Shown in pieces: positions 37 to 56,491 of a stretch of 57,358 nucleotides of DNA. The stretch is from Patescibacteria group bacterium. Its GTDB lineage: Bacteria > Patescibacteriota > Minisyncoccia > Phycocordibacterales > Phycocordibacteraceae. The stretch's first letter is position 1. Every line of letters begins with the position of its first letter. The stretch covers positions 1-57,358 of the forward strand of contig JAZKAU010000001.1 in NCBI GenBank assembly GCA_040388985.1, written 5' to 3'. The position numbers and the translations under genes are program-made. The notes under the pieces are model-generated. The model saw only the letters and a list, made by a program, of their open reading frames with translations, did no database searches and was not told the origin of the DNA.

Positions 37-223
37 GCGGGCCCAGTAGGAATCGGTCACAGTTTACTAAACTCGAAGACTCGTTAAGTATCTGCGACCC
101 CGCCTCGCTGTCCTCGCAAGGCCTCGGACATGCTCCGGCTTTCGATTCCTACACGCGAGCAAAGCAGTTTGCTCGCTTGGGCCCGCAAATAGAAGAAGCG
201 CTTCTAAAGCGCTTCTTCTATTT
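37..223 (-). repeat. tRNA-Trp-linked palindromic module: displaced direct copy of the tRNA 3' end, ~90-nt conserved core, inverted copy of the tRNA 3' end, and a 26-bp hairpin
   Basis: The 19-nt GCGGGCCCAGTAGGAATCG at 37-55 equals 224-242, the T-loop-to-discriminator part of tRNA-Trp. An inverted copy lies at 143-152 plus 177-186, split by hairpin 155-176. A perfect 26-bp hairpin is formed by 178-203 and 207-232. Core boxes 62-90 and 113-127 are shared with the other tRNA-linked modules and with the repeats at 14143 and 23058. Confidence 0.75.
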
Positions 224-224
224 G

Positions 225-295
225 CGGGCCCAGTAGGAATCGAACCTACACTATCGGTTTTGGAGACCGATGTTCTACCACTAAACTATAGGCCC
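225..295 (-). tRNA. tRNA-Trp: tRNA-Trp (anticodon CCA)
   Basis: Hand-folded cloverleaf. Acceptor GGGCCTA/TGGGCCC, D stem GTTT/GAAC, anticodon stem TCGGT/ACCGA with loop CTCCAAA, T arm GTAGG-TTCGATT-CCTAC, discriminator G. CCA is not encoded. Confidence 0.9.
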
Positions 296-457
296 GAACG
301 AGACAATGCGACTGAATATATTCAGACGAATTCGTCGAGAGAGGGTTCTATATCCGTGCAAGCAACGGATATAGGCCCGTAACTAGGAGAGTAGCAGATT
401 CAGAGACCAAAATACAGGTTCGGCTGCTTGGGGAATCACACTCTTTGGCGCTTATAG

Positions 458-2117: not shown

Positions 2118-3089
2118 ATGAAATACGTCGTAGCATGTGCAAGCTTCGCGCTCCTACTCCAGCTTGCTCCTGTGCCTGTCTATGCCGCTACGACCGGCTT
2201 ATTCGGTCCCACGAACCCCATCGTTCCGGCTGAGTGCTCCTGCGAGAAACAGAAAGCACCGGACGGCAAATCACTCATCACTACCGCGCCCGCCTACGGG
2301 TGCGTGCTTCAGACGCTGCAGAATGTCGTGAATGACGGCATATCGATCGCCATAGTCATATGCGTTCTCTGGCTCGCCCTTGCGGGTGCGCTTTTCCTGA
2401 TGAGCGCGGGAAATCCCGGTATGCGCGAGCAAGGCAAGACCCGCATCATGAATGCAGTCATTGGGTTAGTAGTCATACTTGCTGCCTGGCTCATCGTCGA
2501 TTTCGTCATGAAGACGCTGTATAACGAGAAGAGCGACTTCGGACCTTGGAATTCCATACTTGCCAGTAAGTCTGATACTGATAAATGCGTCGTCGCGACG
2601 AATCCTACCTCTATCGCTTCAGGTACGCTTAGCATACTGCAGAGCGTGACCCCGGGTACGTCGAGCGGTCCCGCCGCCGGAGGAGGGGTGGGTTCAAGCG
2701 GCTTGAATATTGCTGCCGCAACACACTATGCCACTATTCATTATCCAAATACTACGAGCGACAAGCATGCGTGTCTTGCCGGAGTTCAGCTCGCGCTTCA
2801 TGAGGGAGGAAAGACTTTAGCGTGTCCTCCTGACGGCTATGCCGATCAATGTGACGCGCCATTACTAAGACTCGGCTTCGCATCGCTGGGGTCATCCGAT
2901 CCTAGTCCGCTTGCGGGCGATATCGTAGTCATTCAACCGTTCCCGGGCGAGAAGGGAATCGGAGGGAAGGCAGGACACATTGCGATGTATAGCGGTACCG
3001 CTTGGATCTCTGACTTCACCCAGATAGATTTCTGGGGAGGACCAGGCTATCGTGCGAATCAGCCTGCGCACACTTTCTATCGCCCTTAG
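2118..3089 (+). CDS. Paralogous T4SS-pilin-like two-TM module fused to a C-terminal papain-like (CHAP/NlpC-P60-type) cell-wall hydrolase domain
   Basis: About 150 aa are highly similar to the 458-1555 product (CVLQTLQNVVN..GNPGMREQGKTRI..VDFVMKTLY..FGPWNSILASK), after which the two diverge. The C-terminus has candidate catalytic Cys (DKHACLAGV) and His (GHIAMYSG) residues. Confidence 0.7.
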   Translation: MKYVVACASFALLLQLAPVPVYAATTGLFGPTNPIVPAECSCEKQKAPDGKSLITTAPAYGCVLQTLQNVVNDGISIAIVICVLWLALAGALFLMSAGNPGMREQGKTRIMNAVIGLVVILAAWLIVDFVMKTLYNEKSDFGPWNSILASKSDTDKCVVATNPTSIASGTLSILQSVTPGTSSGPAAGGGVGSSGLNIAAATHYATIHYPNTTSDKHACLAGVQLALHEGGKTLACPPDGYADQCDAPLLRLGFASLGSSDPSPLAGDIVVIQPFPGEKGIGGKAGHIAMYSGTAWISDFTQIDFWGGPGYRANQPAHTFYRP

Positions 3090-5056: not shown

Positions 5057-5145
5057 TCCGCGCCCTTCTTGGTATCTAAGTATAAGACATGGTCACGAGT
5101 TGCGGATATATTGCTCCAAGTATTCGTTAACTTGCACTAGACTAG

Positions 5146-5307
5146 ATTGGACTTGGCACCCGTCACTAAGCTCGAGGACTCGCTAAGTCCGCCAGCCCGA
5201 GCTCGCGACGCTCGCAAAGCCTCGCATAACGCTCCGCTTTTCAAGTCCCACACAAAGAGCGCGCAGGCGCTCTTCTCTCCAGCCCCTCGCTCACTGCGTT
5301 CGTTCGG
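5146..5307 (-). repeat. tRNA-Leu-linked palindromic module
   Basis: TTCAAGTCCCAC (5240-5251) and CTCCAGC (5277-5283) are reverse complements of the tRNA-Leu T-arm and acceptor 3' strand (5316-5327, 5309-5315). They are split by hairpin 5255-5274. The outer stem pairs 5146-5155 with 5242-5251. Core boxes 5167-5189 and 5211-5225 match the Trp module. Confidence 0.65.
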
Positions 5308-5387
5308 TGCTGGAGGTGGGACTTGAACCCACAACCCGAGGGAGCGGGTTTTGAATCCGCCGCGTATACCGATTCCGCCACTCCAGC
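5308..5387 (-). tRNA. tRNA-Leu: tRNA-Leu (anticodon CAA), long variable arm
   Basis: Acceptor GCTGGAG/CTCCAGC, anticodon loop TTCAAAA, variable arm about TCCCTCGGGTTG, T arm GTGGG-TTCAAGT-CCCAC, discriminator A. There is one A-C mismatch at the base of the anticodon stem. Confidence 0.85.
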
Positions 5388-5493: not shown

Positions 5494-6522
5494 ATGAAGG
5501 AAGAGAATTATCTGCCGACGAAATACGACTCGGTATTCTGGGTCGAAGTCGATCGCATCCAGCCCAATCCCTATCAGCCGCGCATAGAATTCAACGAGGA
5601 GAATCTCAAGAGCATGGCTGAGTCCATACGCCAGTACGGCGTGCTCATGCCGCTTGTCGTGACGCGCAAGGACATCGAGAAGCCCGACGGAGGGCTCCAG
5701 ACAGCCTATGAGCTCATCGCCGGGGAACGTAGGCTCCGGGCGAGCAAGCTCATCGGTCTCAAGGAAGTTCCTGTAGTGATTCGCGCAGGCGAGCAGACTG
5801 ACCGCATGAAGCTCGAACTTGCCATCATCGAGAACCTGCAGCGCGAGGATCTGAATTCCATCGATAGGGCTAAAGCTTTGGCGCAGCTCGCGGAGACCTT
5901 CGGCATATCCCATGCAGAAATAGGCGCAAAGATAGGTCGCAGCCGAGAGTATGTATCGAACTCGATCAGGCTTCTCCAGCTTCCGGAAGCAGTACAGTCA
6001 GCGGTCGTGAATAAAGAGATCACCGAGGGCCACGCGCGGGCGCTCCTCATGCTCACTGACCGTCCGGAAGAGCGCGATACCTTATTCCGCGAGATAGTAC
6101 TCAAAAAGACATCGGTACGCGTCGTAGAGCAGATGGCTCGCCGGCTCGCCCAGGATAAGATCCGTAAGCACGATAAGACGCCCGAGGTCATGGAGCTTGA
6201 GCGCAGCCTTACAGAGACGCTCGGCACGCGCGTCTTGATAGAGAACCGCCCGAAGGGCGGCCGGGTGCTCATCGAGTTCTTCTCGCCTGAGGACCTTTCC
6301 CATATCGCTGCCATCCTCGCTGAACGCAGGGAAGTCGAGGCGAGCATGTCTCCTGAGGCGCATGCATCTGTGGCTGAGACAATTGGAGCTGAGCCCAGTG
6401 CGGCTGCGACGCCAGACGTGCCCGTTCATCCGAACACCTCGCTTATCGAAGCTGTGCCGCCTCCGCTACCTGTGGTTGAACCTGACGAGGATCTTTACTC
6501 CGTCCACAACTTCACCGTCTAG
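5494..6522 (+). CDS. parB: ParB/Spo0J chromosome partitioning protein
   Basis: PNPYQPRIEFNEENLKSMAESIRQYGVLMPLVV and LIAGERRLRASKL, followed by an HTH region. The ATG at 5494 is preferred over the GTG at 5476. Confidence 0.9.
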   Translation: MKEENYLPTKYDSVFWVEVDRIQPNPYQPRIEFNEENLKSMAESIRQYGVLMPLVVTRKDIEKPDGGLQTAYELIAGERRLRASKLIGLKEVPVVIRAGEQTDRMKLELAIIENLQREDLNSIDRAKALAQLAETFGISHAEIGAKIGRSREYVSNSIRLLQLPEAVQSAVVNKEITEGHARALLMLTDRPEERDTLFREIVLKKTSVRVVEQMARRLAQDKIRKHDKTPEVMELERSLTETLGTRVLIENRPKGGRVLIEFFSPEDLSHIAAILAERREVEASMSPEAHASVAETIGAEPSAAATPDVPVHPNTSLIEAVPPPLPVVEPDEDLYSVHNFTV

Positions 6523-8171
6523 TGCGGCTTCTCCTTTTTCGTTGACTTCTTCTTTCGCGCCTTCACCGGCTTCAGCTCGCCCTTCGGCGATATGGTACCG
6601 CGCTCCGCGTGATCAAGCTTGAGCCGTATATGTCGACGGGCCATGCTGGTGCGCGCATACTCTATCCATTTGGCCGTCGGGTGAGCAGAGGGACGCTCGA
6701 GGATCTCCACGACGTCGCCATTGCGGAGCTGCGTATCGAAGGAGACCATCTTCCCGTTCACTTTCGCGCCGTTCATGTGATGACCCAATTCGCTGTGTAT
6801 AGCGTACGCGAAGTCCACGGGCGTCGAGCTTACCGGCAGGTCGATGACGTCACCCCGCGGCGTGAAGACGAAGACGCGATGCGAGAAGAAGTCTTGGCGC
6901 AGCCCTTCGACGAAATCAGTTGAACCGGCAGTCGGTGCATGCGCGTCAGCAAGCTCTGAAAGCCACGGCGGCGCGACCCGCTGCTTGCTCTTGACCTTCT
7001 TCACTTTTTCTACGGGAGCCGGTGCAGCGTCCCTTGAGCGCAGATGCAGGAGGGTCGGCACGAGTCCGCGCATCCACGAGAAGGAAAGACGCTCGAAGGC
7101 CTGCTTCTGAGCCACTTTTTCGAGCTTCTGCGTCTCTTGTCGCAGCTGCTTGTATGACATGTGCGAGGCGATACCGTATTGCGCTTCCTGATGCATCTCT
7201 TCGGTGCGTACCTGCATCTCGACGATGCCTGCGTCCGGAGTTATCACGGTCGTATGCAGCGACTGATAGCCGTTGGGCTTAGGGAAGGAGATATAGTCCT
7301 TGAATTCGCCCGGAAGGGTCTTCCAGAGCGCGTGGATGACACCGAGCGTCGTATAGCAGTCGTCGATGGTGGGCACGATGACGCGTAACGCAGCTATGTC
7401 ATGTATACGCGTGATGTCGTCGTTCTTGCGCTTGAGTTTCTGATGCAGGCTCCAAAGACCTTTCATGCGGATATCAGTTCGAAAGCCGGTCATGTTGCGG
7501 CGCGCGAGCGCATGCTGCAGATCCCTCTGTACCCGTACGAGCCCGGCCTCGGTCTCCTTAGATTTGAGCTTCCTGACTTCAAGCGCGTGCTGGTAGGCGT
7601 CAGGATCGATGTTAGGAAATGCCAAGTCCTCAAGCTCGCGCTTCATCGCGCCCATTCCGAGTCGGTCAGCGAGCGGCGCGTATATCTCGAGCGTCTCAAG
7701 CGCGATGCGGCGGCGCTTGGCTTCCGGCACATGCTCGAGCGTCGTCATGTTGTGGTAGCGGTCGCAGAGCTTGATGATGAGTACGCGCACATCGGCAGAG
7801 GTAGCGACTAGCAGGCGTCGCAGTGACTCAGCATGACGCTCCGCGCCCTGATACTTGTGCTTGCCGAGCTTGGTCACGCCCTCGACGAGGAAGCGGACAT
7901 CAGGACCGAATTCAGCTTCGATCGTTTCCTCCGAGACCCCGGTGTCCTCGACGCAGTCGTGCAGAAGACCTGCGGCAATGGTATCCGCGTCCATGCCGAG
8001 CTCCGCCAGATGGAGGGCGACTGCTGCAGGATGGAGGAAGTATGCTTCGCCCGAGTAGCGTTTATGGTCCTTATGAGCATTCTCCGAGAAGGCATACGCC
8101 TTCTCGATAAGCGTGATATCCTCCGGATCCGGATCGCGCATGGCCGCCACGATCTGCTTGACGGTAGTCAT
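6519..8171 (-). CDS. Bifunctional (p)ppGpp synthetase/hydrolase, RelA/SpoT family; TGS domain present, no ACT domain
   Basis: HD domain (YFLHPAAVALHL..LLHDCVEDT), synthetase core (YQSLHTTV), and TGS (VFVFTPRGDVIDLP..AYAIHSELG). The start is set at MTTVKQ (8171); the ORF extends to 8276. Confidence 0.9.
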   Translation of the reverse strand: MTTVKQIVAAMRDPDPEDITLIEKAYAFSENAHKDHKRYSGEAYFLHPAAVALHLAELGMDADTIAAGLLHDCVEDTGVSEETIEAEFGPDVRFLVEGVTKLGKHKYQGAERHAESLRRLLVATSADVRVLIIKLCDRYHNMTTLEHVPEAKRRRIALETLEIYAPLADRLGMGAMKRELEDLAFPNIDPDAYQHALEVRKLKSKETEAGLVRVQRDLQHALARRNMTGFRTDIRMKGLWSLHQKLKRKNDDITRIHDIAALRVIVPTIDDCYTTLGVIHALWKTLPGEFKDYISFPKPNGYQSLHTTVITPDAGIVEMQVRTEEMHQEAQYGIASHMSYKQLRQETQKLEKVAQKQAFERLSFSWMRGLVPTLLHLRSRDAAPAPVEKVKKVKSKQRVAPPWLSELADAHAPTAGSTDFVEGLRQDFFSHRVFVFTPRGDVIDLPVSSTPVDFAYAIHSELGHHMNGAKVNGKMVSFDTQLRNGDVVEILERPSAHPTAKWIEYARTSMARRHIRLKLDHAERGTISPKGELKPVKARKKKSTKKEKPH

Positions 8172-14142: not shown

Positions 14143-14325
14143 GTGAATCCCCTGAAATTCCCCGATCTGCTGCGTTGCTCTCGTCGTTCAAGACCGAACG
14201 GTACGCCCCTGTTTACTTACGAGTCATCGAGTTAGTAAACAGGAAGTGCCCTTGGGGTGCGCCTGAGTACGACTCGGTCTTTCACTTCTCAGCGCCTTGC
14301 ATATCGGGTTTTTCAAGGGACTCAC
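14143..14325 (+). repeat. Long imperfect-palindrome element (long variant) immediately after the ftsQ-like stop codon
   Basis: Outer arms 14143-14170 and 14299-14325 pair at about 22 of 28 positions. A central 10-bp-stem hairpin is formed by CCTGTTTACT (14208-14217) and AGTAAACAGG (14234-14243). Homologous to 23058-23237, and to the short variants at 46113 and 46648. Confidence 0.8.
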
Positions 14326-16836: not shown

Positions 16837-16903
16837 TTGGGAGACCATCAATGGTATATCAGCTGCTTCGCAGCAGGAAAGCGACCTTTGAAGTAATCCT
16901 AGA
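16837..16903 (+). pseudogene. Degenerate partial copy of the tRNA-Gln 5' two-thirds, abutting the true gene
   Basis: 16837-16856 matches 16905-16924 at 17 of 20 positions (acceptor 5' strand plus D arm). GCGACCTTTGAAG (16881-16893) matches GCGGCCTTTGAAG (16931-16943), the anticodon arm. A 24-nt hairpin-containing insert lies between them. There is no T-arm 3' half or acceptor 3' strand. Confidence 0.6.
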
Positions 16904-16905
16904 AT

Positions 16906-16976
16906 TGGGAGATCGTCTAATGGTAGGACAGCGGCCTTTGAAGCCGTGAATCTAGGTTCGATCCCTAGTCTCCCAG
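16906..16976 (+). tRNA. tRNA-Gln: tRNA-Gln (anticodon UUG)
   Basis: Acceptor TGGGAGA/TCTCCCA with a U1-A72 pair, anticodon stem GCGGC/GCCGT with loop CTTTGAA, T arm CTAGG-TTCGATC-CCTAG, discriminator G. Confidence 0.9.
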
Positions 16977-17140
16977 CAAATAAAGTGCGTGAGCAATTTT
17001 TTGCTGGGAGAAGTAAGCGTGGGGCGCTTACGGCTAGGGATCGAAGACCTTGTGAGCATTTTCTGAGTCCTCAAAGAAAATACACAAGGTGTACTGATCC
17101 TGTAAGGATCGAAGCGTAGTCGCGGCCCTAGTCTCCCAGC
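16977..17140 (+). repeat. tRNA-Gln-linked palindromic module
   Basis: A 12-bp hairpin pairs 16969-16980 with 17000-17011 and uses the acceptor 3' strand. A second hairpin is at 17013-17031. CTAGGGATCGAA (17034-17045) is the reverse complement of the tRNA T-loop and stem (16957-16968). An ~80-nt core follows. The 15-nt direct repeat CCCTAGTCTCCCAGC occurs at 16963-16977 and 17126-17140. Confidence 0.7.
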
Positions 17141-23059: not shown

Positions 23060-23237
23060 AGACCTCTGAAATTCCTCGATCTACCGCGTTGCTTTCGTCG
23101 TTCAAGACCTCACGTACGCCCCTATTTACTTACGAGTCATCGAGTTAGTAAATAGGAAGTGCCCTCGGGGTTCGACTGAGTACGACTCGGTCTCTCGCTC
23201 CTCAGCGCTTTGTATATCGAGTTTTTCAAAGGTCTTT
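23058..23237 (+). repeat. Long imperfect-palindrome element (long variant) overlapping the stop of the MliC-like gene
   Basis: Outer arms 23058-23084 and 23212-23237. Central hairpin CCTATTTACT (23121-23130) with AGTAAATAGG (23147-23156). There are three compensatory base-pair changes relative to copy 14143-14325. Confidence 0.8.
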
Positions 23238-32837: not shown

Positions 32838-35588
32838 ATGGCATTCGAAGGACCCGTACAACCGATAGCGACACCCGAGGACGAGCTTGCGTACCTGCGC
32901 GCTCAGATCGCAGCGAAGGAGGCGGAACTTGCAACTCTCAAGGAATCACGTCCGCGTGAAGAGATAGTGCACGAACGTCTCCTGCATCACCGCGAAGCTG
33001 CCCCTGAAGCGGTGCTTGCGCCGAGCTATCAGCTCACGAGCGAAGCGGCAAGCGCGCTCGCGCTCAACCTTGATCCTGAGAGCGATGACGATACGATGAG
33101 CGAGCTCAAGGGCATCATGGAGACCAAAGGCATCAAGAATGCCTTTGCAGTACTTGAGAAGCTGAACTCACCGCATCTCGAGGACGACTTCCATCGCTTT
33201 CTCGTCCAATATCTCTTAAAAGGTCAGCCCATAAACGGACTTGGTGAAAAGCAGCCGGCATGGAAGTCGCTTCACATGACCCTCTACGAGATAGCGCTTC
33301 CAGAAGTAAGCGCGGGAGAAGGGCAGGCCAAACCGCTCAAGGAGCTCATCTCCGCGATGGAGCAGTTCTACTCAGGCATGCTCGCCGTCGAGAAAGCATA
33401 TGCGAATGAGCCGGCATATTTCTCGCTCGAGCTTGCCGTGCCGGTCGATAGCGCGCATCTCATGTTCTATGCTGCAGTCCCCAATTCACGGCGCGATCTT
33501 TTCGAGAAGCAGATACTTGCCATTTTCCCGAATGCGAACATCGCGGCACAGCCGAACGACTACAACGTCTTCGTACAGGACGGCGTATCACTCGCGTCCA
33601 TAGCTTCATTCGCGAAGCCAGCCGCGCTGCCGCTCAAGGACTACGCTGATTTCGATTACGATCCGCTCAACTCGCTCCTGAATGCCTTCGCAAAGATTGC
33701 CCCAGAGAACGAGGGTGCATCGCTCCAGATTCTCATCCATCCCGAGAACGATCGACACGCCGATCACTATCGTCGCATCCTCGACCTTCTGCGCAAAGGT
33801 GATAATCGCGATTCAGCATTGCGCCACCCAGAATCGTTCTTCGGTGACGCGATGAAGGATCTTGGCTCGACATTCTTCGGGAACGCGAAGCATGAGGCGG
33901 AAGAACGCGAGCGCAGGCGCAGCATCAATGCCAATCAGTCGGACATCGAGCAGGTAGAGAAGAAGATGGCTGCTCCGCTCGTCTCGGTCAATATGCGCCT
34001 CGCCGTGTCATCCCAGGACGCCGGGCGTGCCGAACAGATACTCGGAGAGCTTGAAGCAGCGTTCCATCAATTCGAGAATCCGCTAGGGAACCGCCTCCAC
34101 TGGACCCGCATAGCGCGAGGCGCCCTTCGCCGCTTATTCCATGACTTTACGTTCAGGCTTTACGAGAGGAGTTCGGAGCTCGCCATGTCGCTTCGCGAGC
34201 TCACGACCCTCTATCACTTCCCGCCGAGCGGCATCGAATCCTCGCCGCACTTGAAGCAGTCGCGCGCCAAAGGTGCGGCAGCTCCTGCGGAGTTGCCGCG
34301 AGAGGGTCTTGTTCTTGGAACTAATACCTTCGGCGGGAAAGTCACCGAAGTACGTCTCGGCGATCAGGATCGCCTGCGCCATCTCTATGTTATCGGTCAG
34401 ACCGGTGCCGGAAAGTCCGGTCTGTTGCGCACGCTCCTTGATCAGGACATCAAGGCCGGTAAGGGCGTCTGCTTCATCGATCCGCACGGCAACGACATCC
34501 TCGACGTGCTCGCCGGCGTGCCGCCCGAGCGGTATGAGGATGTCATCTATTTCGATCCGGCTAATATAGACCGGCCGTTCGGCATCAATATGCTTGAGTA
34601 TGATCCGTCGCATCCCGAACAGAAGTCCTTCATCGTGAATGAGCTTCTTATGATCTTCCGCCAGCTGTATGGCGACGTGCCTGAATCCATGGGCCCGGCC
34701 TTCGAGCAGTATTTCCGCAACGCGACCCAGCTCGTCATGGAAGACCCGAGTTCCGGCTCGACCCTCATGGACATCGGTCGAGTACTCTCTAACAAGGCAT
34801 TCCGCGACCTCAAGCTTTCCCGTTCCATGAATCCTATCGTAAACCAATTCTGGACCGAGATAGCGACGAAGGCCGGAGGCGACGCGTCCCTCGAGAATAT
34901 CGTGCCGTACATCACGAACAAGTTCGACGAGTTCACTGCCAACGATTTCATGCGACCGATAATCGGCCAGCAGAATTCGTCGTTCAATTTCCGCGACGTG
35001 ATCGACTCCAAGAAGATATTGCTCGTGAACCTTTCCAAGGGTCGCTTAGGCGAGCGCAACGCCAACCTGCTCGGCCTCATCATCGTGGGCAAGCTGTTCA
35101 TGGCGGCGCTTTCGCGCGCCGACAATCCGCGCGCTGACTTCCCGCCGTTCTATCTCTATATCGACGAGTTCCAGAACATCACGACATCCTCGATTCCGGG
35201 CATTCTCTCTGAGGCCCGCAAATACAAGCTTTCGCTTACCATAGCGCACCAGTACCTGGCGCAGATCGATGAGAAGATACGGGACGCCGTCTTTGGAAAC
35301 GTGGGCTCAATGTCTATCTTCCGCGTGGGCCAGGAGGACGGGGAATTCTTTGGGAAGCTCTTCGAACCGACTTTCAGTGCAAGCGACTTCACCAATATTG
35401 AGAACAGGAACGCGTATGTGCGTATCCTTGCGAATGGCGTGCCACAGAAGCCGTTCAACATCCGCACGCTCGACTTGGCGCCTGGAAATCTCGACCAAGT
35501 GGACGACTTGCGCGAGCTTTCATACCTGACATACGGTCGGGACCGTGGTACCGTTGAAGCATCGATTAGAGAGCGCTATCTTTCCTAA
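32838..35588 (+). CDS. VirD4/TraD-family (type IV coupling protein-like) P-loop ATPase without an N-terminal TM anchor
   Basis: Walker A YVIGQTGAGKSG, then CFIDPHGND, Walker B FYLYIDEFQN, and LTIAHQYLAQI. The ~480-aa N-terminal region has no hydrophobic segment. Confidence 0.75.
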   Translation: MAFEGPVQPIATPEDELAYLRAQIAAKEAELATLKESRPREEIVHERLLHHREAAPEAVLAPSYQLTSEAASALALNLDPESDDDTMSELKGIMETKGIKNAFAVLEKLNSPHLEDDFHRFLVQYLLKGQPINGLGEKQPAWKSLHMTLYEIALPEVSAGEGQAKPLKELISAMEQFYSGMLAVEKAYANEPAYFSLELAVPVDSAHLMFYAAVPNSRRDLFEKQILAIFPNANIAAQPNDYNVFVQDGVSLASIASFAKPAALPLKDYADFDYDPLNSLLNAFAKIAPENEGASLQILIHPENDRHADHYRRILDLLRKGDNRDSALRHPESFFGDAMKDLGSTFFGNAKHEAEERERRRSINANQSDIEQVEKKMAAPLVSVNMRLAVSSQDAGRAEQILGELEAAFHQFENPLGNRLHWTRIARGALRRLFHDFTFRLYERSSELAMSLRELTTLYHFPPSGIESSPHLKQSRAKGAAAPAELPREGLVLGTNTFGGKVTEVRLGDQDRLRHLYVIGQTGAGKSGLLRTLLDQDIKAGKGVCFIDPHGNDILDVLAGVPPERYEDVIYFDPANIDRPFGINMLEYDPSHPEQKSFIVNELLMIFRQLYGDVPESMGPAFEQYFRNATQLVMEDPSSGSTLMDIGRVLSNKAFRDLKLSRSMNPIVNQFWTEIATKAGGDASLENIVPYITNKFDEFTANDFMRPIIGQQNSSFNFRDVIDSKKILLVNLSKGRLGERNANLLGLIIVGKLFMAALSRADNPRADFPPFYLYIDEFQNITTSSIPGILSEARKYKLSLTIAHQYLAQIDEKIRDAVFGNVGSMSIFRVGQEDGEFFGKLFEPTFSASDFTNIENRNAYVRILANGVPQKPFNIRTLDLAPGNLDQVDDLRELSYLTYGRDRGTVEASIRERYLS

Positions 35589-35592
35589 ATCT

Positions 35593-38500
35593 ATGTCTAA
35601 GAATGGAGAACCAGGATTTCCGCCGCCAGGAATAAGCGCATCCGGGAACGAGGGAGAGCCCAAAGAACTTCGGCGCGGAGCGCTCTATGAACGCGACGGT
35701 GACGTATATCTTGTCGTCCAAAGGCTGCCGGACGGTGAAGTGAGGATTCTGAAGGAGAAAGACGTTATAGGACAACATGAGTATGATGGCCCTAGTACGC
35801 TTAAGGAATTTCGGGAAGATGACATTCACAAGTTTGCTATGGCCTATAGGCCGGGCGCAAGCTATTCCGGAGAAACGCTCTCTATGGATTACTTTACGAA
35901 AGGCGCGAGCTATATTGGCTCACTTCCCGATCCCGCGATCAATTCCAGAGCTGAATTCCCAGATTATCCTTCAGGCACTACCGGAATTCTGAGTGAAGGC
36001 GGCGAACGGATCATGCTTCTTGGTTCTCCATACTTTGATACTAGTTACGATAAATGGATGGCCAGTGTCAAGAATTCTGATGAATCCAGACAACATAGGT
36101 TTATAGAAGATTTCAAACCTGATTCGGAAAAGCCACTTATTGTCGAGAAGCCACTTGTTTTACCGAAAATTCCCAAAGTTGCTGAAGAGATACCTCTCAT
36201 TGTCGAGAAGCCGATCATAGCTGAGGAGGTGCCTCTCATTCTTTCGACCACTCCTGAAGCGGTTGACACATCCGTAGAGAAAGAGCCGAAGCCGATCGGA
36301 TTCATCGATGAAGACAGGATTTACCGACTCGCGGATCCAAGCGAGCTTCCAAAAAAATTGGGATTCATGACCTACAATACGGAAAAGGGGAAAGGAGATA
36401 TATTAATGATCCGTGCACAGACTGATCCTGCAGATTCAGGAACGCCTGATTGGGTTGCCCTCGATGCGATCGTCTTCGTTGACGAGACGGAGCGCGCGAA
36501 ATACGAGAAATACAGAGGCTTGGGATACGTAAAAGTTAACGACAACAATGACATAATCTCTGATGATGAGGCAAATCAGCGTATGGGGCCTATCGTGCTG
36601 TCTCCCGAGGCTCTAGCCGCAGCCGAGGCATATAAGAAGGAAGTCGAGGAAGCCGATGCTCTGCGCACAAGGCTGCTTGATGTGAAAGGAAATGATGAAT
36701 CACGTGAAATTGATACAGCTGGTTACTACAAGCGTACCACCACCCAGATGATTATCTCGGCTAAGGGGAGGATGGAACATATGAAAACCCAAAGCGCGAC
36801 TTTGCCACCCTCGCTGAAAGCCGAATTTAACGGCGAGTTTGTGCAAATGCAAACAGGATTATCCCGAATCATAGCCTTGGACGCGGAACTGCAGAGACTG
36901 ATTGATTCGAAGGGAGCCAATACCGAAATCAATCACGATGCTTATCTAAATGAAATCGAGCTTTTTGTACTCAGCGAAGATAGATTGATAGGCATTCTCA
37001 AGAAAGGAACTGTTGATTCAGACTTGAATACGGATAGTACACCGCCGCTTCCTGAGTCCATTCCCCAGCCGCCCGTTGACCCTCTATGGCATCACGGGCC
37101 GCCGGGGCTGCACGATGATCCGACGTTTGACTCCTTGAAAGAGACCAAGGAGGGATTGAACCGGAGCGTGGAAGAACTGCAAGCGCTCCGCATAGATCAG
37201 CGGGAGGCAAACGTAGAAGAGTTCGCTGCTAAATACAACATCACTTTACAATATGTAGAGTTGCGTGCAATAGAACGTCAGGTCGCTGACGTGATACGAA
37301 AGCGAGGTACTAATGTCGTTCGCGTTCCTTTTAATACATTCAAATTACCGAAGGAGCTCCAAGAGGATTACACGGCAGCGCAGGCGGCATGGATCGCCGC
37401 GCTTGATGGAGCGGTGCCGAAATTCGATACGCCCACTAAAGAGCTGACGAAGGAGCAATATCAGGCATTGAGTCCCGAAGAGCGAGCACAGCGTCAGGAT
37501 CGTATTAAGGCAGAAATGATCGCTAAGCGCGATACGGTCATCCGTCCAGGTAAGCTGAAGACAGAGGCCTTGCGCGCGGGCCTCGATGAGCGTAGCCAGA
37601 AGCTCGCGGTACGGTTGATGCAATGGGCAAGCTTCGGAGCGACTGAACTTCTCCGGGAGGACGCGGCAGTATTCAAGGCAGGCTTCAAAGGGTACTCGAA
37701 ACTAGCTGAGAAGGTCGGAGGTCTTGGCGAAGGCGCTGCGCGAGGAGCGATGGCGGGTTATGAGTTGTTTGGGGGACAGGAGATAAGCGAAGAGCGAAAA
37801 GCTGCGGTCTCCTTGCGCGCGCGCCGTATCGTCGGCTCGGCTGCCATATGGAGCCTTTTGGTGCCGGTCGGCGTCGCCGCGGCAGGTACTGCGGGTATAG
37901 CCGCAGCCGCCGGTCTCGGTACCCTTTCTCTAACGGGTATGAGCGCGGCTGCGTTCGCTCGCATACTGCGCGGTGGTATCGGCATAGCGACCGGCGGCGT
38001 GGCAGGCGTAGGAGCAGGAAAGGCATACGAACGCACTATCGGGACGTATGCGCAGAAGAAGAACGAGACCTCTAGGCAGAATCTCACAGAGCTTTATAAG
38101 AAAGGTTCGCTTACGGACTTATTAGAAACCGCAAAGCGCACGGAAGCTGAAAAAATATATCAGAGAGGAAATACGGAAGCTCGAGAAGCGCGCACGCAGA
38201 GAGCCGCGAGCGGCCGGTCTCTCTTCGAGATGGGAGTGGCAGGAATAGTCGGAGGACTGGCGGCTTACGAATCGAGCGGCGTCATCAACAAGGATATGTT
38301 CGGCAGTCATTCCGCAGTGGATAAAGCCGTGGGAGACATACGGCGAACAGAAACCGGCAGCGCTACCGCATCGAGCGAAGCGGCTCCTGCTCCTAAGCCT
38401 ACGACAGATTCCCTCGTACGACCGCGAACAGAGGCCGTTTCTTCCTCTGCGAATCCGCCTGAACAGGCCGCTACGAGTGCTGCTCCGACCCCTGCTGCGC

Positions 38501-39627
38501 CGGAAGGGGTGACCAGCAATGTCTCGATAGAAAACGCTTCAGGAGAAGGCACGGATCAGCTCTTCAGAGAACTTAAGGCGGTAGCCGGAAAGCCAGGATT
38601 CGGAGGCGGTACGCATTCCGCTGCACTGAATCACCTCTTAGGAACGAATTCGAATGCGCTTTCCCGAGAAATGGGCGAGGCTTACGGCACGCGCGGAATG
38701 GTGACTCACGTTGGGGACAAGTTCATCATCGACAGCAAGCAGAATGTCTACTTCCAGGCGGCAGGCGGAGAGCCGCAGCTTTTCTTAGAGAATAACGATG
38801 CTAGCCCGAAGGGCTTCACCGTACATGAGATAGACGCGAAGCCGCTGCCTCCTATCGAACAGCAACAAGCGGCGCGAACTACACCAGCCAGAGCTCCGCA
38901 GCCTATAGAACGGCCCGCAGCACCCGCCGAAACGCAGCAGTCCCCATCTACAACTGCTCCGCAGGAAATCTCGAATGCTCCCGCGCCATCCCCAGAGGCG
39001 GTGGTACAAGATAGTGTGACCCCAGCGGCTTCTGTCGATGCCGTGAATGCAGTACCTGATCAACACGCAGATACCTCCGTGGTTGACGCTACGACTCCTG
39101 CGGATGCTATTGACGCGAGCAATGCCAGTACCGCGCCCGCCATTTCTCCTGACCAGGCACCTGCTGCGACGGAGCCGCTAGCAGCCGAACGTCCGGCAGT
39201 ACCTGCATCTTCAGAAGCGGTCACGACTCCTGCGGCAGATCACTCCGCTCCAGAGGCTCCAGCAAGCACGAGCAGTGCGCTTGAGCCGTATACCAATCCG
39301 CATGGAGAATTCATAGACCCGAGCAAGCCGGGCATGCATCCATGGAGGGTGCCGGGTACCAAGCTGACGTACCCGGTCATCTACGGAGGAGATGACGCTA
39401 CGAGGGCAGCGTGGGCCGATCAGTATCTCAAAGATAACCCTGGCACAGAGCAAGTTCTGACTACGTATACTGATCCATTAACGCATCAGACGTACCTGCA
39501 GCTGCATAAGCTAGGGCCTACCGGGCAGCCGCAACCGCCGATAGGAATGGTCTATTTCCCGGACACGGAGGAGGCTCTTCCGATTCCTGACCCGAAGGAC
39601 TTTCTAAAGATGAGATATAATATATGA
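35593..39627 (+). CDS. Giant hypothetical membrane protein (1344 aa)
   Basis: The ATG is 5 nt after the ATPase stop. It contains a PLIVEKP-type short repeat, coiled-coil-like regions, a central Gly/Ala-rich cluster of TM segments (IVGSAAIWSLLVPVGVAAAGTAGIAAAAGLG.., GGIGIATGGVAGVGAG, MGVAGIVGGLAAY), a long Pro/Ala/Thr-rich linker, and a C-terminal globular part. Confidence 0.75.
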   Translation: MSKNGEPGFPPPGISASGNEGEPKELRRGALYERDGDVYLVVQRLPDGEVRILKEKDVIGQHEYDGPSTLKEFREDDIHKFAMAYRPGASYSGETLSMDYFTKGASYIGSLPDPAINSRAEFPDYPSGTTGILSEGGERIMLLGSPYFDTSYDKWMASVKNSDESRQHRFIEDFKPDSEKPLIVEKPLVLPKIPKVAEEIPLIVEKPIIAEEVPLILSTTPEAVDTSVEKEPKPIGFIDEDRIYRLADPSELPKKLGFMTYNTEKGKGDILMIRAQTDPADSGTPDWVALDAIVFVDETERAKYEKYRGLGYVKVNDNNDIISDDEANQRMGPIVLSPEALAAAEAYKKEVEEADALRTRLLDVKGNDESREIDTAGYYKRTTTQMIISAKGRMEHMKTQSATLPPSLKAEFNGEFVQMQTGLSRIIALDAELQRLIDSKGANTEINHDAYLNEIELFVLSEDRLIGILKKGTVDSDLNTDSTPPLPESIPQPPVDPLWHHGPPGLHDDPTFDSLKETKEGLNRSVEELQALRIDQREANVEEFAAKYNITLQYVELRAIERQVADVIRKRGTNVVRVPFNTFKLPKELQEDYTAAQAAWIAALDGAVPKFDTPTKELTKEQYQALSPEERAQRQDRIKAEMIAKRDTVIRPGKLKTEALRAGLDERSQKLAVRLMQWASFGATELLREDAAVFKAGFKGYSKLAEKVGGLGEGAARGAMAGYELFGGQEISEERKAAVSLRARRIVGSAAIWSLLVPVGVAAAGTAGIAAAAGLGTLSLTGMSAAAFARILRGGIGIATGGVAGVGAGKAYERTIGTYAQKKNETSRQNLTELYKKGSLTDLLETAKRTEAEKIYQRGNTEAREARTQRAASGRSLFEMGVAGIVGGLAAYESSGVINKDMFGSHSAVDKAVGDIRRTETGSATASSEAAPAPKPTTDSLVRPRTEAVSSSANPPEQAATSAAPTPAAPEGVTSNVSIENASGEGTDQLFRELKAVAGKPGFGGGTHSAALNHLLGTNSNALSREMGEAYGTRGMVTHVGDKFIIDSKQNVYFQAAGGEPQLFLENNDASPKGFTVHEIDAKPLPPIEQQQAARTTPARAPQPIERPAAPAETQQSPSTTAPQEISNAPAPSPEAVVQDSVTPAASVDAVNAVPDQHADTSVVDATTPADAIDASNASTAPAISPDQAPAATEPLAAERPAVPASSEAVTTPAADHSAPEAPASTSSALEPYTNPHGEFIDPSKPGMHPWRVPGTKLTYPVIYGGDDATRAAWADQYLKDNPGTEQVLTTYTDPLTHQTYLQLHKLGPTGQPQPPIGMVYFPDTEEALPIPDPKDFLKMRYNI

Positions 39628-46103: not shown

Positions 46104-46112
46104 AGAAGCTTC

Positions 46113-46220
46113 CTGAAATTCCCCGATCTGCTGTGTTGTCGCTCTCACTTGGACTTTCACCGTACAGCCCAGTACGACTCAAGTCCTCGCTCTGCTCCGC
46201 CTTGCATATCGGGTTTTCAG
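46113..46220 (+). repeat. Imperfect-palindrome element, short variant, 9 nt after the kinase stop
   Basis: Terminal arms CTGAAATTCCCCGATCTGC and GCATATCGGGTTTTCAG. It lacks the ~57-bp central hairpin segment of the long variant. The flanking AGCTTC and AAACCT are shared with copy 46648. Confidence 0.8.
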
Positions 46221-46242
46221 AAACCTTGGACCTGCTGCATAA

Positions 46243-46641: not shown

Positions 46642-46647
46642 AGCTTC

Positions 46648-46756
46648 CTGAAATTCCCCGATCTGCTGCGTTGCTCTCGTCGCTCAAGACCTCACCGTAC
46701 GCCCGAGTACGACTCGGCCTTTCGCTCCTCAGCGCCTTGCATATCGGGTTTTTCAG
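46648..46756 (+). repeat. Imperfect-palindrome element, short variant, 6 nt after the response-regulator stop
   Basis: It has the same arms as 46113-46220 and the internal hairpin CCGAGT-ACG-ACTCGG. It is in direct orientation with the upstream copy. Confidence 0.8.
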
Positions 46757-46856
46757 AAACCTCTTAAAGCTTTCGTGATTTTGCAGATATACGTGTCGCT
46801 AGGTATACTGAATACGTACCTGTCCCGCCACGGACAGGAACTTTACATACGAACTT

Positions 46857-56241: not shown

Positions 56242-56314
56242 GGGCCGTTAGCTCAGTTGGTAGAGCATCTCATTTGCAATGAGAGGGTCGCAGGTTCGAA
56301 TCCTGTACGGTCCA
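56242..56314 (+). tRNA. tRNA-Ala: tRNA-Ala (anticodon UGC)
   Basis: Acceptor GGGCCGT/ACGGTCC with the G3-U70 wobble pair, D arm GCTC-AGTTGGTA-GAGC, anticodon stem TCTCA/TGAGA with loop TTTGCAA, T arm GCAGG-TTCGAAT-CCTGT, discriminator A. Confidence 0.9.
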
Positions 56315-56491
56315 CAAACGCAACCGCCGAAAGGCGGCTTTTGCGTTTGTGGACCGTAGCATAGTGTCTGCACACTCTGCGGCAGGATTCGAAAGTGGTT
56401 GAGTATGTCGCAGCGAGCCCGAGGCTTTGCGAGAACGAAGCGAGACACGAAACCCATACTGTCCCCGTAAGGGACGAATCCTGTACGGTCA
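56315..56491 (+). repeat. tRNA-Ala-linked palindromic module
   Basis: A 17-bp perfect hairpin pairs 56307-56323 with 56341-56357 and uses the acceptor 3' strand. A second hairpin is at 56363-56376. GCAGGATTCG (56382-56391) is an inverted T-arm copy. The core contains the box CCCGAGGCTTTGCGAG (56418-56433). The 16-nt direct repeat CGAATCCTGTACGGTC occurs at 56297-56312 and 56475-56490. Confidence 0.75.

Follow-up and report, generated by a model that had tools for sequence, protein, structure and literature searches.

An apparent family of small non-coding insertion modules in the 3′ part of Saccharibacteria/Patescibacteria tRNA genes

A direct repeat that extends from the T loop past the 3′ end of a tRNA gene is the classical att signature. 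It is associated with integrative elements of the T-loop class (tyrosine-integrase phages, islands, ICEs and CIMEs), which are among the described systems closest to the modules reported here. The others are integron attC cassettes and the CTX-phage attP(+) hairpin (XerCD), group I and group II introns, and MITEs together with hairpin-targeting insertion sequences (IS200/IS605 PATEs, REPINs with RAYT, and IS110/IS1111 on REP or attC hairpins). Partial tRNA genes arise from element integration (PMC9897764).

Modules of the kind described below are present at all four tRNA genes (Trp, Leu, Gln and Ala) of the window, the 57,358-nucleotide, Saccharibacteria-like stretch of Patescibacteria DNA that was analysed. 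An initial annotation had proposed that a single plan is repeated at the four genes, and this is borne out by side-by-side layouts and shuffles, the direct copy at tRNA-Leu being decayed. 3′ of each tRNA lies a hairpin (L1), followed by an inverted copy of the tRNA 3′ end that is usually split by a side hairpin (h2), a core of 80-85 nt, and a direct copy of the same end; the insertion amounts to ~170 non-coding bases per tRNA. The modules appear to constitute an undescribed family of miniature mobile elements and not a part of normal tRNA processing. Our overall reading, to which we assign a probability of roughly 0.55, is that they are selfish, non-coding insertion modules of very small size (about 150-200 bp) that reside in the 3′ part of Saccharibacteria/Patescibacteria tRNA genes. 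That they are mobile, selfish insertions which replace the tRNA 3′ end is held with considerable confidence.

Module layout at the four tRNA genes

The module at tRNA-Trp is arranged as follows, in tRNA sense:

224..295, minus strand: tRNA-Trp(CCA) (ARAGORN; Rfam tRNA, 74.5 bits)
224-242, minus strand: proximal copy X, the last 19 nt of tRNA-Trp, C56 to discriminator+1 (repeat search)
187..223, minus strand: L1, top of a terminator-like hairpin (inverted-repeat search)
178..186, minus strand: A2′, inverted acceptor 3′ strand, discriminator and next base (inverted-repeat search)
153..177, minus strand: h2, 9-bp side hairpin with loop CUGC (inverted repeat; covariation across 16 copies)
141..152, minus strand: A1′, inverted T loop and T-stem 3′ strand, T54-65 (inverted-repeat search)
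56..140, minus strand: type-1 core (covariance model R1, 99.9 bits; covariation)
37..55, minus strand: X again, as the distal direct copy of the 3′ end of tRNA-Trp (repeat search)

The sequence GCGGGCCCAGTAGGAATCG occurs at 37-55 and again at 224-242 with 19/19 identity in a repeat search, as first annotated, and the second occurrence is the T-loop-to-discriminator+1 end of tRNA-Trp. The inverted copies that had been recognized alongside it match the distal copy at 10/10 positions (143-152 vs 46-55) and 9/9 positions (178-186 vs 37-45), and the hairpin between them has its arms at 152-163/168-179. When compared directly with the tRNA, the inverted T part extends to 12 nt (141-152 with 233-244), and A1′ extends 2 nt deeper into the tRNA than does the distal direct copy. 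The side hairpin h2 interrupts the inverted copy precisely where its acceptor part meets its T-stem part. The hairpin at 178-203/207-232 proved to be perfect over 26 bp, as had been claimed; L1 (187-223) forms this palindrome with 178-186 and 224-232. The type-1 core comprises a three-way junction, a helix with tandem G.A pairs, a 'GG' linker, and a helix GGUCGCAG/CUGUGACC capped by hairpin ACUUAaCGAGUCuUCGAGuUUAGU, and its 3′ end (...GUGAC) directly abuts C56 of the distal copy.

Two further claims for this locus were upheld in part. The core and its boxes are present, but the boxes are shared less widely than had been supposed: among tRNA loci the box at 62-90 is common only to Trp and Leu, that at 113-127 to Trp, Leu and Ala, and the Gln core is of the other type. 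Two copies of an unrelated repeat, located at 14.2 and 23.1 kb, contain the box at 62-90 as well. Upstream of the gene, the 10-nt repeat 287-296/370-379 and the hairpin at 348-374 exist as described, but alignment of the tRNA 5′ part with the upstream flank gave z = 1.2 only, so this repeat may be due to chance.

The remaining three loci contain the following features:

5306..5387, minus strand: tRNA-Leu(CAA) (ARAGORN; Rfam)
5137..5305, minus strand: Leu module (R1, 67.5 bits at 5146-5251)
5284-5305, 5277-5283, 5252-5276 and 5240-5251, minus strand: Leu spacer, A2′, h2 and A1′
5156-5239 and 5137-5155, minus strand: Leu type-1 core and decayed distal copy
5089..5136, minus strand: candidate relict of another unit with an internal deletion, ...ACTTGGAGC...CTCGTGAC/C (read by eye; here and below a slash before the final base or X marks the junction)
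16906..16977, plus strand: tRNA-Gln(UUG) (ARAGORN; Rfam)
16978..17140, plus strand: Gln module (covariance model R2, 74.5 bits at 17034-17119)
16978-17002, 17003-17011, 17012-17033 and 17034-17045, plus strand: Gln L1, A2′, h2 and A1′
17046-17125 and 17126-17140, plus strand: Gln type-2 core and distal copy
56242..56315, plus strand: tRNA-Ala(UGC) (ARAGORN; Rfam)
56316..56490, plus strand: Ala module (R2, 51.4 bits; R1, 17.7 bits; terminator scan)
56316-56348, 56349-56358, 56359-56382 and 56383-56393, plus strand: Ala L1 (terminator-like), A2′, h2 and A1′
56394-56474 and 56475-56490, plus strand: Ala type-2 core and distal copy

Direct copies measure 19 nt at Trp, 15 nt at Gln and 16 nt at Ala, and the corresponding inverted copies 12+9, 12+9 and 11+10 nt. 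At Leu the inverted copy is 12+7 nt and the decayed direct copy matches at about 13/19 positions by manual count or 11/18 in the decay test. When each downstream region was shuffled 2000 times, none of the shuffles matched the direct copy at Trp, Gln or Ala, and for each inverted copy at most one did; the Leu direct copy, taken alone with its 7-nt exact core, was no better than chance. The Gln core differs in type from that of Trp, and the type-2 core of Ala carries a type-1-like CGAG hairpin. The sequence at 5089-5136, where the models give no match, might conceivably be what is left of a second Leu unit. A clear, decayed copy of the tRNA-Gln 5′ part is located upstream of that gene, at 16838-16902.

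Folding, insertion point and distribution

The cores fall into two types, 80-110 nt in length. Covariance models and a covariation test indicated that both core types and h2 covary strongly on the tRNA-sense strand. In alignments made with these models, which are biased towards the modelled structure, type-1 helices were 82% paired (64% in shuffles) with a covariation score of 0.418 vs 0.149, type-2 helices were 93.6% paired (62% in shuffles) with a score of 0.567 vs 0.156, and h2 was 84% paired (56% in shuffles) with a score of 0.694 vs 0.227. Both sides had changed in 16/17 type-2 pairs, and type-1 helices include a conserved G.U. G.U pairs were found on the sense strand only, and conserved junction nucleotides surround the covarying helices. 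A conserved G is paired with C56 in either core type, which places the core/X junction at a helix junction. These alignments support a predicted single-strand fold of the cores and h2 in the tRNA sense; covariation does not separate RNA from ssDNA.

The module had also been likened to a tRNA-like minihelix. The likeness holds for topology only, with the core in place of the T loop: within the closing helices (9 + 10-12 bp) the discriminator, the base after it and all bases of the T loop are paired. The 12-bp acceptor/T stack and free NCCA end by which a minihelix substrate is defined are thus lacking.

Orthologous empty sites, for which a search had been proposed, were found at tRNA-Trp. In L059 and L060, which are empty at this gene, it is followed by its native terminator; in L070, which is filled, two units (306 nt) followed by a relic X separate the gene from the terminator seen in L059/L060. 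The functional, element-borne 3′ end is not identical to this relic X and is the one that the unit's inverted copy matches. The reading at tRNA-Leu in L075, L058 and L065 agrees with that of the Trp pair. Overall, the data show that the inserted unit, consisting of a tRNA 3′ part, a hairpin, an inverted copy and a core, has T55 on one side and C56 on the other; in 'short' variants the insertion point falls among the last bases of the tRNA. They also show that the tRNA gene is kept intact because the unit brings the 3′ part with it, that the original 3′ end and native terminator are displaced downstream to become the distal direct repeat, and that newer insertions shift older units outward to build arrays. 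From the L070 vs L059 comparison, the distal copy at 37-55 of the window is interpreted as the displaced original 3′ end of tRNA-Trp. Snap-back or template-switch copying of the target at each insertion is not supported, as the L070 unit copies differ from the displaced original.

Arrays of 2-5 units were observed, as were chimeric units, orphan units, and units nested inside the hairpin loops of others. At least one nested unit (tRNA-Tyr of L075/L058) keeps the plan X, hairpin, inverted copy (rcX), core, X, with X down to 5 nt. When extended by 2 nt into the tRNA, the inverted copy (rcX+2) is the exact reverse complement of uninterrupted NN/X in T-loop and short variants alike. Direct repeats that start at C56 are 15-30 nt long, and over all variants the repeats span 3-30 nt. 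Different bases precede the insertion point on its 5′ side (TT, CC, GG), and the element ends (...GTGAC/C) are constant at every tRNA. In the decay test, decay had affected the inverted copy in some cases and the distal copy in others, which argues that there is no lasting host constraint and led us to reject lasting selection on the inverted copy. L059 carries two small ORFs between two units. No excised circle and no identical recent copies were seen.

Scans with R1 and R2 over 1.12 Mb of related Saccharibacteria/Patescibacteria DNA matched 50 modules, 41 of which are co-oriented with a tRNA and lie at most 900 nt downstream of it. The arrangement had been expected to recur at the tRNA genes of relatives; it does so at 32/120 tRNAs, but is missing from most orthologous ones. 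Presence is patchy: all tRNAs of the window (4/4) have a module, and the count is 1/30 among the closest relatives and 23/65 among more distant ones. Nine specificities are represented: Trp, Leu, Gln, Tyr, Gly, Asp, Arg and Ala in the counted set, and Ser at a viral-contig locus (L169). The same core families are found at these nine and at non-tRNA hairpins, and X and rcX are tRNA-specific and element-borne. Since tRNA-Trp bears different core types in different genomes, insertions at this gene are independent. Cores within one genome are ~60-85% alike by uncomputed visual estimate. In IMG/VR, a type-2 pattern gave 56 matches, of which one was real and lay on a Saccharibacteria-chromosome-like contig with an island; a type-1 pattern gave 72, all rejected by the model, and a GA-hairpin pattern gave none.

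A proposed mechanism and its alternatives

Two of the possibilities initially raised are each contained in part in these results. Miniature integrated elements at a T-loop-class site account for repeats that start at C56, empty sites and a displaced 3′ end, and insertion into hairpin loops accounts for nesting; neither is the whole of what was found, and MITE properties are lacking. We tentatively suggest recombination through a folded mimic of the target as the mechanism. The unit runs from X (the replacement tRNA copy, C56 to just past the 3′ end) through L1 and rcX+2, usually broken by h2 at the acceptor/T-stem boundary, to the folded core; its active form would be single-stranded and of tRNA sense. 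Pairing of rcX+2 with X would yield a duplex that mimics the intact target on both sides of the crossover, and the core may clamp its own 3′ end and the first X base, C56, at the helical junction. Strand exchange would occur there, by a recombinase or nuclease encoded elsewhere and less likely by the core RNA itself, and would resemble that of a folded integron attC or CTX-phage attP hairpin with a duplex target. Several points weigh against our overall reading, among them the lack of a recombinase, transposase or reverse transcriptase in the window, of excised circles and of identical recent copies, and the limited likeness of cores within one genome. Each unit also carries sequences specific to its own tRNA, which is hard to reconcile with a lineage acquiring a new target. 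In addition, many L1 hairpins resemble real terminators in a terminator scan and no sigma-70-like promoter was predicted in the three modules scanned, so it is unclear when the sense strand would be single-stranded.

The statement that no family with this architecture has been described agrees with our searches. Literature searches returned no description of such modules, and the Trp module had no BLAST match in phage and plasmid collections. At gathering thresholds, Rfam matches in the window and six module-rich loci were limited to tRNA, tmRNA, rRNA, a group I intron in an unrelated rRNA and spurious miRNA hairpins, and at E<=10 positions 1-420 gave none beyond tRNA and spurious hairpins. 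Hammerhead, twister, twister-sister, pistol, hatchet, HDV-like and hairpin ribozymes were absent from both searches. No recombinase, transposase or reverse transcriptase is encoded among the window ORFs, where tyrosine recombinases (including IntI) and TnpA were likewise not seen, and none consistently adjoins the modules. Serine-recombinase genes located 0.4-1.5 kb downstream of tRNAs in five sister loci provide only a lead to a candidate enzyme.

These genes also bear on the idea that modules are scars or cis-mobilisable remnants of larger islands, in which a tyrosine or large serine integrase acted on double-strand att sites, the interior was lost, attL and attR fused (CIME-like), and mobilisation occurs in trans. 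The T-loop-to-beyond-3′-end repeat is what such islands leave, and a unit is of nearly the size expected for a minimal attP. Genes for two large serine recombinases and a reverse transcriptase lie on an 18.4-kb island that is bordered by two palindromes, derived from T arms and of X-loop-rcX type, and adjoins a tRNA-Ser with a type-2 unit; the ORFs between the L059 units can be read in the same sense. Against this, double-strand protein-binding arms should not give covarying helices, and element ends stay constant regardless of the tRNA. Canonical double-strand tyrosine or serine att geometry does not fit the modules, and large-serine-recombinase geometry was rejected, as crossover at the palindrome centre would split the tRNA, contrary to the data. 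The tRNA-adjacent serine-recombinase loci lack X-L1-rcX, and no full-length element ending in a type-1 or type-2 core was found. We regard an island origin as unlikely. Much the same weight is given to an RNA-level element (mini-intron or ribozyme), with transcription starting at the tRNA promoter and reading through into the unit, and with the core as a small catalytic RNA. Here rcX+2 would be an internal guide pairing with both junction sides, like group I P1+P10 or group II EBS/IBS; the RNA would cleave and ligate at N/C56, possibly circularise, and reverse-splice into tRNA transcripts or DNA, and a reverse transcriptase would fix the product. The exact complementarity of the guide to ligated NN/X favours it, as do the conserved junction nucleotides, the sense-strand G.U pairs, the G-C56 pair at the helix junction, the predicted abutment of the 5′ and 3′ ends of a unit-length RNA (which would favour ligation), twintron-like nesting, and the reverse transcriptase of the related island. 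However, Rfam holds no ribozyme or intron match even at E<=10, the window lacks a reverse transcriptase, L1, which precedes the core, is in many cases a good terminator, and promoters were not predicted. To our knowledge, no splicing ribozyme is nearly as small as the core and no self-cleaver has a C/C junction. We consider it doubtful, at similar odds, that the core represents a novel class of small nucleic acids that act catalytically or carry a guide. Such a class would be a ~100-nt three-way-junction RNA or ssDNA with a ~20-nt internal guide to the T loop, inserting itself at N/C56 by strand exchange and bringing a spare 3′ exon that relieves the host gene of any need for splicing (a minimal self-insulating 'mini-intron' of ultra-small bacteria).

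A host-selected device, namely a tRNA-like RNA or pairing switch for 3′ processing, termination or stability of the upstream tRNA, had been the third possibility and is the least probable, being largely refuted by distribution. Modules are always co-oriented with the tRNA and adjoin it, A′ can pair alternatively with the tRNA end or the distal copy, and the position of h2 gives a tRNA-like branch point. A universal tRNA-processing device is nevertheless unsupported because most orthologues lack the module (29/30 tRNAs of the closest relatives), the tRNA-derived copies decay freely, and units pile up in arrays or occur as orphan and nested units; with the discriminator and T loop paired, the fold is also not a minihelix substrate.

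Several other candidates were rejected. A tandem tRNA pseudogene is contradicted by the '5′ strand', which perfectly complements the 3′ strand, T loop and discriminator included, and does not copy the tRNA 5′ half. The inverted copy matches the genomic trailer and not the CCA end, except where CCA is encoded, contrary to a retroviral-type primer-binding site. For a TnpB/IscB-type guide RNA there is no constant target-adjacent motif, and h2 breaks the would-be guide; for IS110 bridge-RNA logic the two junction dinucleotides differ; and the IS91 target GTTC is a misfit to the cut position and the short variants.

If our preferred reading of selfish insertion modules is confirmed, they would be the smallest known class of tRNA-gene-targeting integrative element and a rare non-coding element carrying a folded mimic of, or guide to, its own target. 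They would explain the abundant partial tRNA copies at Saccharibacteria tRNA loci, with consequences for CPR tRNA annotation, and would show that streamlined, reduced genomes still harbour selfish DNA at essential single-copy genes without their inactivation. The cores add two new covariation-supported structured motifs, candidates for catalysis or protein binding, and with the mobilising enzyme in hand a compact, sequence-programmable insertion system might be possible.

Comparison with known systems

MITEs and hairpin-targeting insertion sequences resemble the modules in being small, non-coding, non-autonomous and hairpin-rich, in entering hairpin loops and in having strand-specific structure. 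Unlike them, modules have neither terminal inverted repeats of their own nor a target duplication of fixed length; the inverted sequences that flank the core are target copies (rcX ... X), the target-derived repeats (15-30 nt) are tRNA-specific, and there is no known partner transposase. IS200/IS605 PATEs are characterized by subterminal hairpins, insertion 3′ of a fixed tetra- or pentanucleotide and a Y1 HUH transposase; in the modules, hairpins lie near both ends and structure is strand-specific, the bases 5′ of the insertion vary, and TnpA was not seen in the window.

Group I and group II introns share with the modules an internal complement to both sides of an uninterrupted target (here rcX+2), insertion into tRNA loops, nesting (twintrons), and, for group IIC introns after terminator hairpins, an association with hairpins or terminators. 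The modules differ in being five to ten times smaller and in having no intron catalytic core by Rfam covariance models; the host gene needs no splicing, and the module begins with a spare 3′ exon.

T-loop-class integrative elements likewise insert in the T loop, carry a replacement 3′ end, displace the old one as a direct repeat beside an intact tRNA, accumulate in tandem at one tRNA, and have empty sites in relatives. Modules are distinguished by their size of only about 170 bp, the absence of genes, one family on many tRNAs, an extra inverted target copy, constant ends and single-strand-type covariation, and no integrase was found among the window ORFs.

Finally, the modules differ from integron attC cassettes and the CTX-phage attP(+) hairpin in that IntI and attI are absent from the window, the stem copies a tRNA 3′ end in place of R/L boxes (neither these nor extrahelical bases were identified), and the cargo is a conserved folded core. 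They share with them the layout 'site - loop - inverted site - body - site', a body open to any cargo, the addition of new units beside the primary site to give arrays and, if the folding predicted from sequence is correct, a folded-strand site with its crossover near the hairpin base.

Modules behind the tRNA genes

The window is unremarkable chromosomal DNA from a Saccharibacteria/Patescibacteria-like bacterium, with genes for TopA, RelA/SpoT, ParB, DprA, DnaX, UvrABC, MiaA, Dus, Tgt, T4SS-type pilins and a VirB4/TraG-like ATPase; its ORFs yielded no integrase, transposase or reverse transcriptase. It carries four tRNA genes (Trp, Leu, Gln and Ala), and the initial annotation's view that one plan is common to all of them was borne out, as the same five parts lie 3′ of each. 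In tRNA sense these are a hairpin (L1), with a stem that often continues into the tRNA acceptor 3′ strand; an inverted copy of the acceptor 3′ strand (A2′, 7–10 nt); a second hairpin (h2); an inverted copy of the T loop and T-stem 3′ strand (A1′, 11–12 nt), always ending in ...TCGAA or ...TTGAA; and a core of 80–85 nt followed by a direct tRNA copy that runs from C56 to just beyond the discriminator. Below, X denotes this tRNA segment and rcX its inverted copy, A2′ plus A1′.

The direct copies at Trp (19 nt), Ala (16 nt) and Gln (15 nt) were matched by none of 2000 shuffles of the downstream regions, and each inverted copy by at most 1 in 2000; the Leu direct copy is decayed (about 13/19). The repeats and hairpins previously listed at tRNA-Trp are all present where they had been placed, with the exception in significance of a 10-nt repeat upstream of the gene, which is not clearly above chance. 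This copy of the tRNA-Trp 5′ end overlaps a 10-bp-stem hairpin (348-379, minus-strand sense) and is either due to chance or a 5′ relic in advanced decay. Core boxes described as shared across loci proved to be shared within subsets and not common to all four: Trp and Leu have type 1 cores, Gln and Ala type 2, and the Ala core also bears a type-1-like CGAG hairpin. A covariance-model search with filters off detected no further modules in the window.

Beyond the window, the modules form a family of small insertions tied to tRNA genes and located in their 3′ parts. An exact-pattern scan for the hairpin ACTTAnCGAGTCnTCGAGnTTAGT, using one genome per species, returned eight loci, of which six belong to MAGs of Saccharibacteria or unclassified Patescibacteria; five of the eight have the hairpin inside this same module, 3′ of a tRNA (Gly-GCC, Ala, Gly-UCC, Asp and Arg). 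A TopA-anchored search of metagenome contigs gave 80 syntenic loci with the same tRNA-Leu, Trp, Gln and Tyr genes. Two covariance models, one per core type, together found 50 modules in 1.12 Mb, 41 of which are co-oriented with a tRNA and ≤900 nt downstream of it, with three more cut by contig ends. With slashes at the junctions, type 1 has the form ...TCGAA/AGCCGGAGC-hairpin-GCGAGGCGGGGUCGCGG-variable hairpin-...GUGAC/C56, and type 2 the form ...TCGAA/GACCUUUUG-hairpin-CAAAAGGUGUACUG-hairpin with YGUAA loop/T-loop. No Rfam family matched the modules, no relative was found in phage and plasmid collections, and no description of such modules was found in the literature.

Covariation and the single-strand fold

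Covariation shows that the module interior has a conserved predicted single-strand fold, the signal being the same for RNA or single-stranded DNA. In alignments fitted to, or chosen for, the structures, and thus biased in their favour, type-1 helices S1 and S2 had 82% of cells paired (64% in column shuffles) and a covariation score of 0.418 (0.149 shuffled; ≤0.056 with partners slid); type-2 helices were 93.6% paired (vs. 62%), scored 0.567 (vs. 0.156) and had both sides changed in 16 of 17 pairs; and h2 was 84% paired (vs. 56%), with a score of 0.694 (vs. 0.227). Given the slid controls and the variety of pair types, chance is an unlikely explanation. One type-1 position is G.U in 19 sequences, where the opposite strand would give C.A. 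S1 has tandem G.A/A.G beside a one-base bulge, and its CGAG...CGAG motif is found again in peripheral hairpins. No promoters were predicted inside the three modules scanned, and some L1 hairpins are canonical terminators while others are not.

A second interspersed repeat family, with no Rfam match, occupies intergenic positions in the window, directly after the preceding gene's stop codon in three of four copies:

14149-14322 (+), repeat copy
23063-23235 (+), repeat copy
46107-46226 (+), repeat copy
46642-46762 (+), repeat copy

The repeat is ~120 nt and forms a long imperfect hairpin (z = -3.3). At its apex, the copies at 14.2 and 23.1 kb have an extra insert of ~50 nt holding the same tandem-G.A hairpin (TTTACTTACGAGTCATCGAGTTAGTAAA) as type-1 cores. 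This hairpin also occurs in a non-tRNA context at 343-366 of L007, a Gottesmanbacteria contig with a group I intron beside the 3′ end of the 23S rRNA gene (6432-6877).

Insertion, nesting and decay at tRNA 3′ ends

A module takes the place of the tRNA 3′ end and displaces the original one; modules also build up, nest in one another and decay. In the window 4/4 tRNAs carry one, compared with 1/30 in its closest relatives (TopA 64–81% identical) and 23/65 in more distant ones, and this patchiness, together with empty and filled states of tRNA-Trp, identifies the module as an insertion and not a constant feature. In loci L059 and L060 a terminator (TTTCAGAAAATATCCAGC...) directly follows tRNA-Trp, while in L070 the tRNA is followed by two units (306 nt), an extra copy of the tRNA 3′ end and the orthologous terminator. 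Two positions distinguish this extra copy from the functional 3′ end, whereas the inverted copy in the first unit matches the functional end. Therefore, a unit of the order X-L1-rcX-core entered between T55 and C56, brought a new tRNA-Trp 3′ end and displaced the old one. The same insertion story holds for tRNA-Leu in L075, L058 and L065, where one X-L1-rcX hairpin is joined to differing core types.

L079 has a T-loop unit and, after it, a "short" unit lodged between the last tRNA bases (CC/CGC). Arrays reach five units (L044) and include chimeric ones. Type-2 cores and one unclassified insert are nested inside hairpin loops of type-1 cores; at tRNA-Tyr of L075 and L058, the nested type-2 core keeps the X-hairpin-rcX-core-X plan with an X of only 5 nt. 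Either the inverted or the distal copy may be decayed, which argues that neither is under lasting selection. A few units are orphans at a distance from any tRNA; one of these lies past two small ORFs.

Orphan or inverted units lying apart from an intact tRNA and, in the last line, a 5′ relic were observed at these positions:

L059 440-800, Gln-type unit beyond the two small ORFs, away from an intact tRNA
L060 14300-15200, two Trp-type units, each preceded by only CCCGC, with no intact tRNA adjoining
L074/L075 6200-6520, nested unit upstream of dus, between genes
L070 14100-14420, inverted-orientation unit beside a relic of a tRNA-Leu 5′ part
Window 16838-16902 (+), decayed tRNA-Gln 5′ copy covering positions 1 to about 52 and interrupted after the D arm by a hairpin, just upstream of tRNA-Gln

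In the related loci, similar 5′ relics were seen upstream of ~10 module-bearing tRNAs and of no clearly empty ones; some have a mirror-image layout of relic, insert, inverted copy and then tRNA (tRNA-Gln of L070 and L079).

At the junctions, the direct copy always begins with C and a purine, either at C56 in the T loop or, at the tRNA end, as CGC/CAC. The inverted copy always spans those bases and reaches two, sometimes up to four, further into the tRNA (TT giving ...TCGAA/, CC giving GCGGG/, GG giving GTGCC/). Across the insertion point it is thus the reverse complement of the target as it stood before insertion. C56 is paired with a conserved G in both core types, which places the core/X junction at a helix foot adjoining the A1′/X helix.

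A candidate mobiliser and alternative readings

Integrases adjacent to tRNAs are normally tyrosine recombinases, and adjacency of large serine recombinases is unusual. The only true match in a viral collection was a contig (L217) with a tRNA-Ser bearing a type-2 unit, after which come a second tRNA-Ser and then an island. Homologues of the island's large serine recombinases are encoded a short way downstream of tRNA genes, in convergent orientation, at five TopA-anchored loci. The positions of the island and of these five loci are:

L217 2057-20537 (IMGVR_UViG_3300000970_000154), 18.4-kb island adjoining tRNA-Ser
L036, L053 and L082, recombinase gene 0.4–1.5 kb downstream of tRNA-Gln, convergent
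L056, recombinase gene 0.4–1.5 kb downstream of tRNA-Leu, convergent
L069, recombinase gene 0.4–1.5 kb downstream of tRNA-Tyr, convergent

The island is flanked by two palindromes of 41–45 bp, of the X-loop-rcX kind and derived from tRNA T-loop/T-stem sequence. Besides two large serine recombinases, it codes for a reverse transcriptase, three DNA methylases, a helicase, a small RelA/SpoT-like protein and ParB-like proteins. Since the five loci are without the module architecture, and a canonical serine-integrase crossover at the palindrome centre would not yield the observed part order, the island is a candidate mobiliser and not a finding. In the window itself, two paralogous T4SS-pilin-domain genes (458-1555 and 2118-3089, +; DNA 73% identical over 240 nt, 632-871 vs. 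2286-2525), a VirB4/TraG-like ATPase and an adjoining 1360-aa ORF without Pfam match (32838-35588; 35545-39627) look like a type-IV-secretion or conjugation-like cluster.

Earlier proposals of mobile elements at tRNA att sites or in hairpin loops were partly right: the modules are small tRNA-targeting insertions that replace the 3′ end, and they nest in hairpin loops. A selected device for tRNA 3′ processing or termination, also proposed, is not supported, and the distribution of modules disfavours any such host function. A tRNA pseudogene is ruled out by the inverted copy, which is complementary to the T loop and discriminator; a minihelix substrate and a universal processing signal were likewise rejected. 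The other main rivals are a mini-intron or ribozyme acting at the RNA level and CIME-like remnants of integrase-borne islands.

We infer that the modules are selfish and mobilised in trans, and class them as a miniature tRNA-targeting integrative element, apparently a variant not described before; there is a modest chance of something categorically new, should the core prove catalytic. The active form would fold so that X and rcX, the latter with its two additional bases, rebuild the target duplex across the crossover, and the core would position the junction. The hairpins of integron attC and CTX attP likewise rebuild a target duplex by folding.
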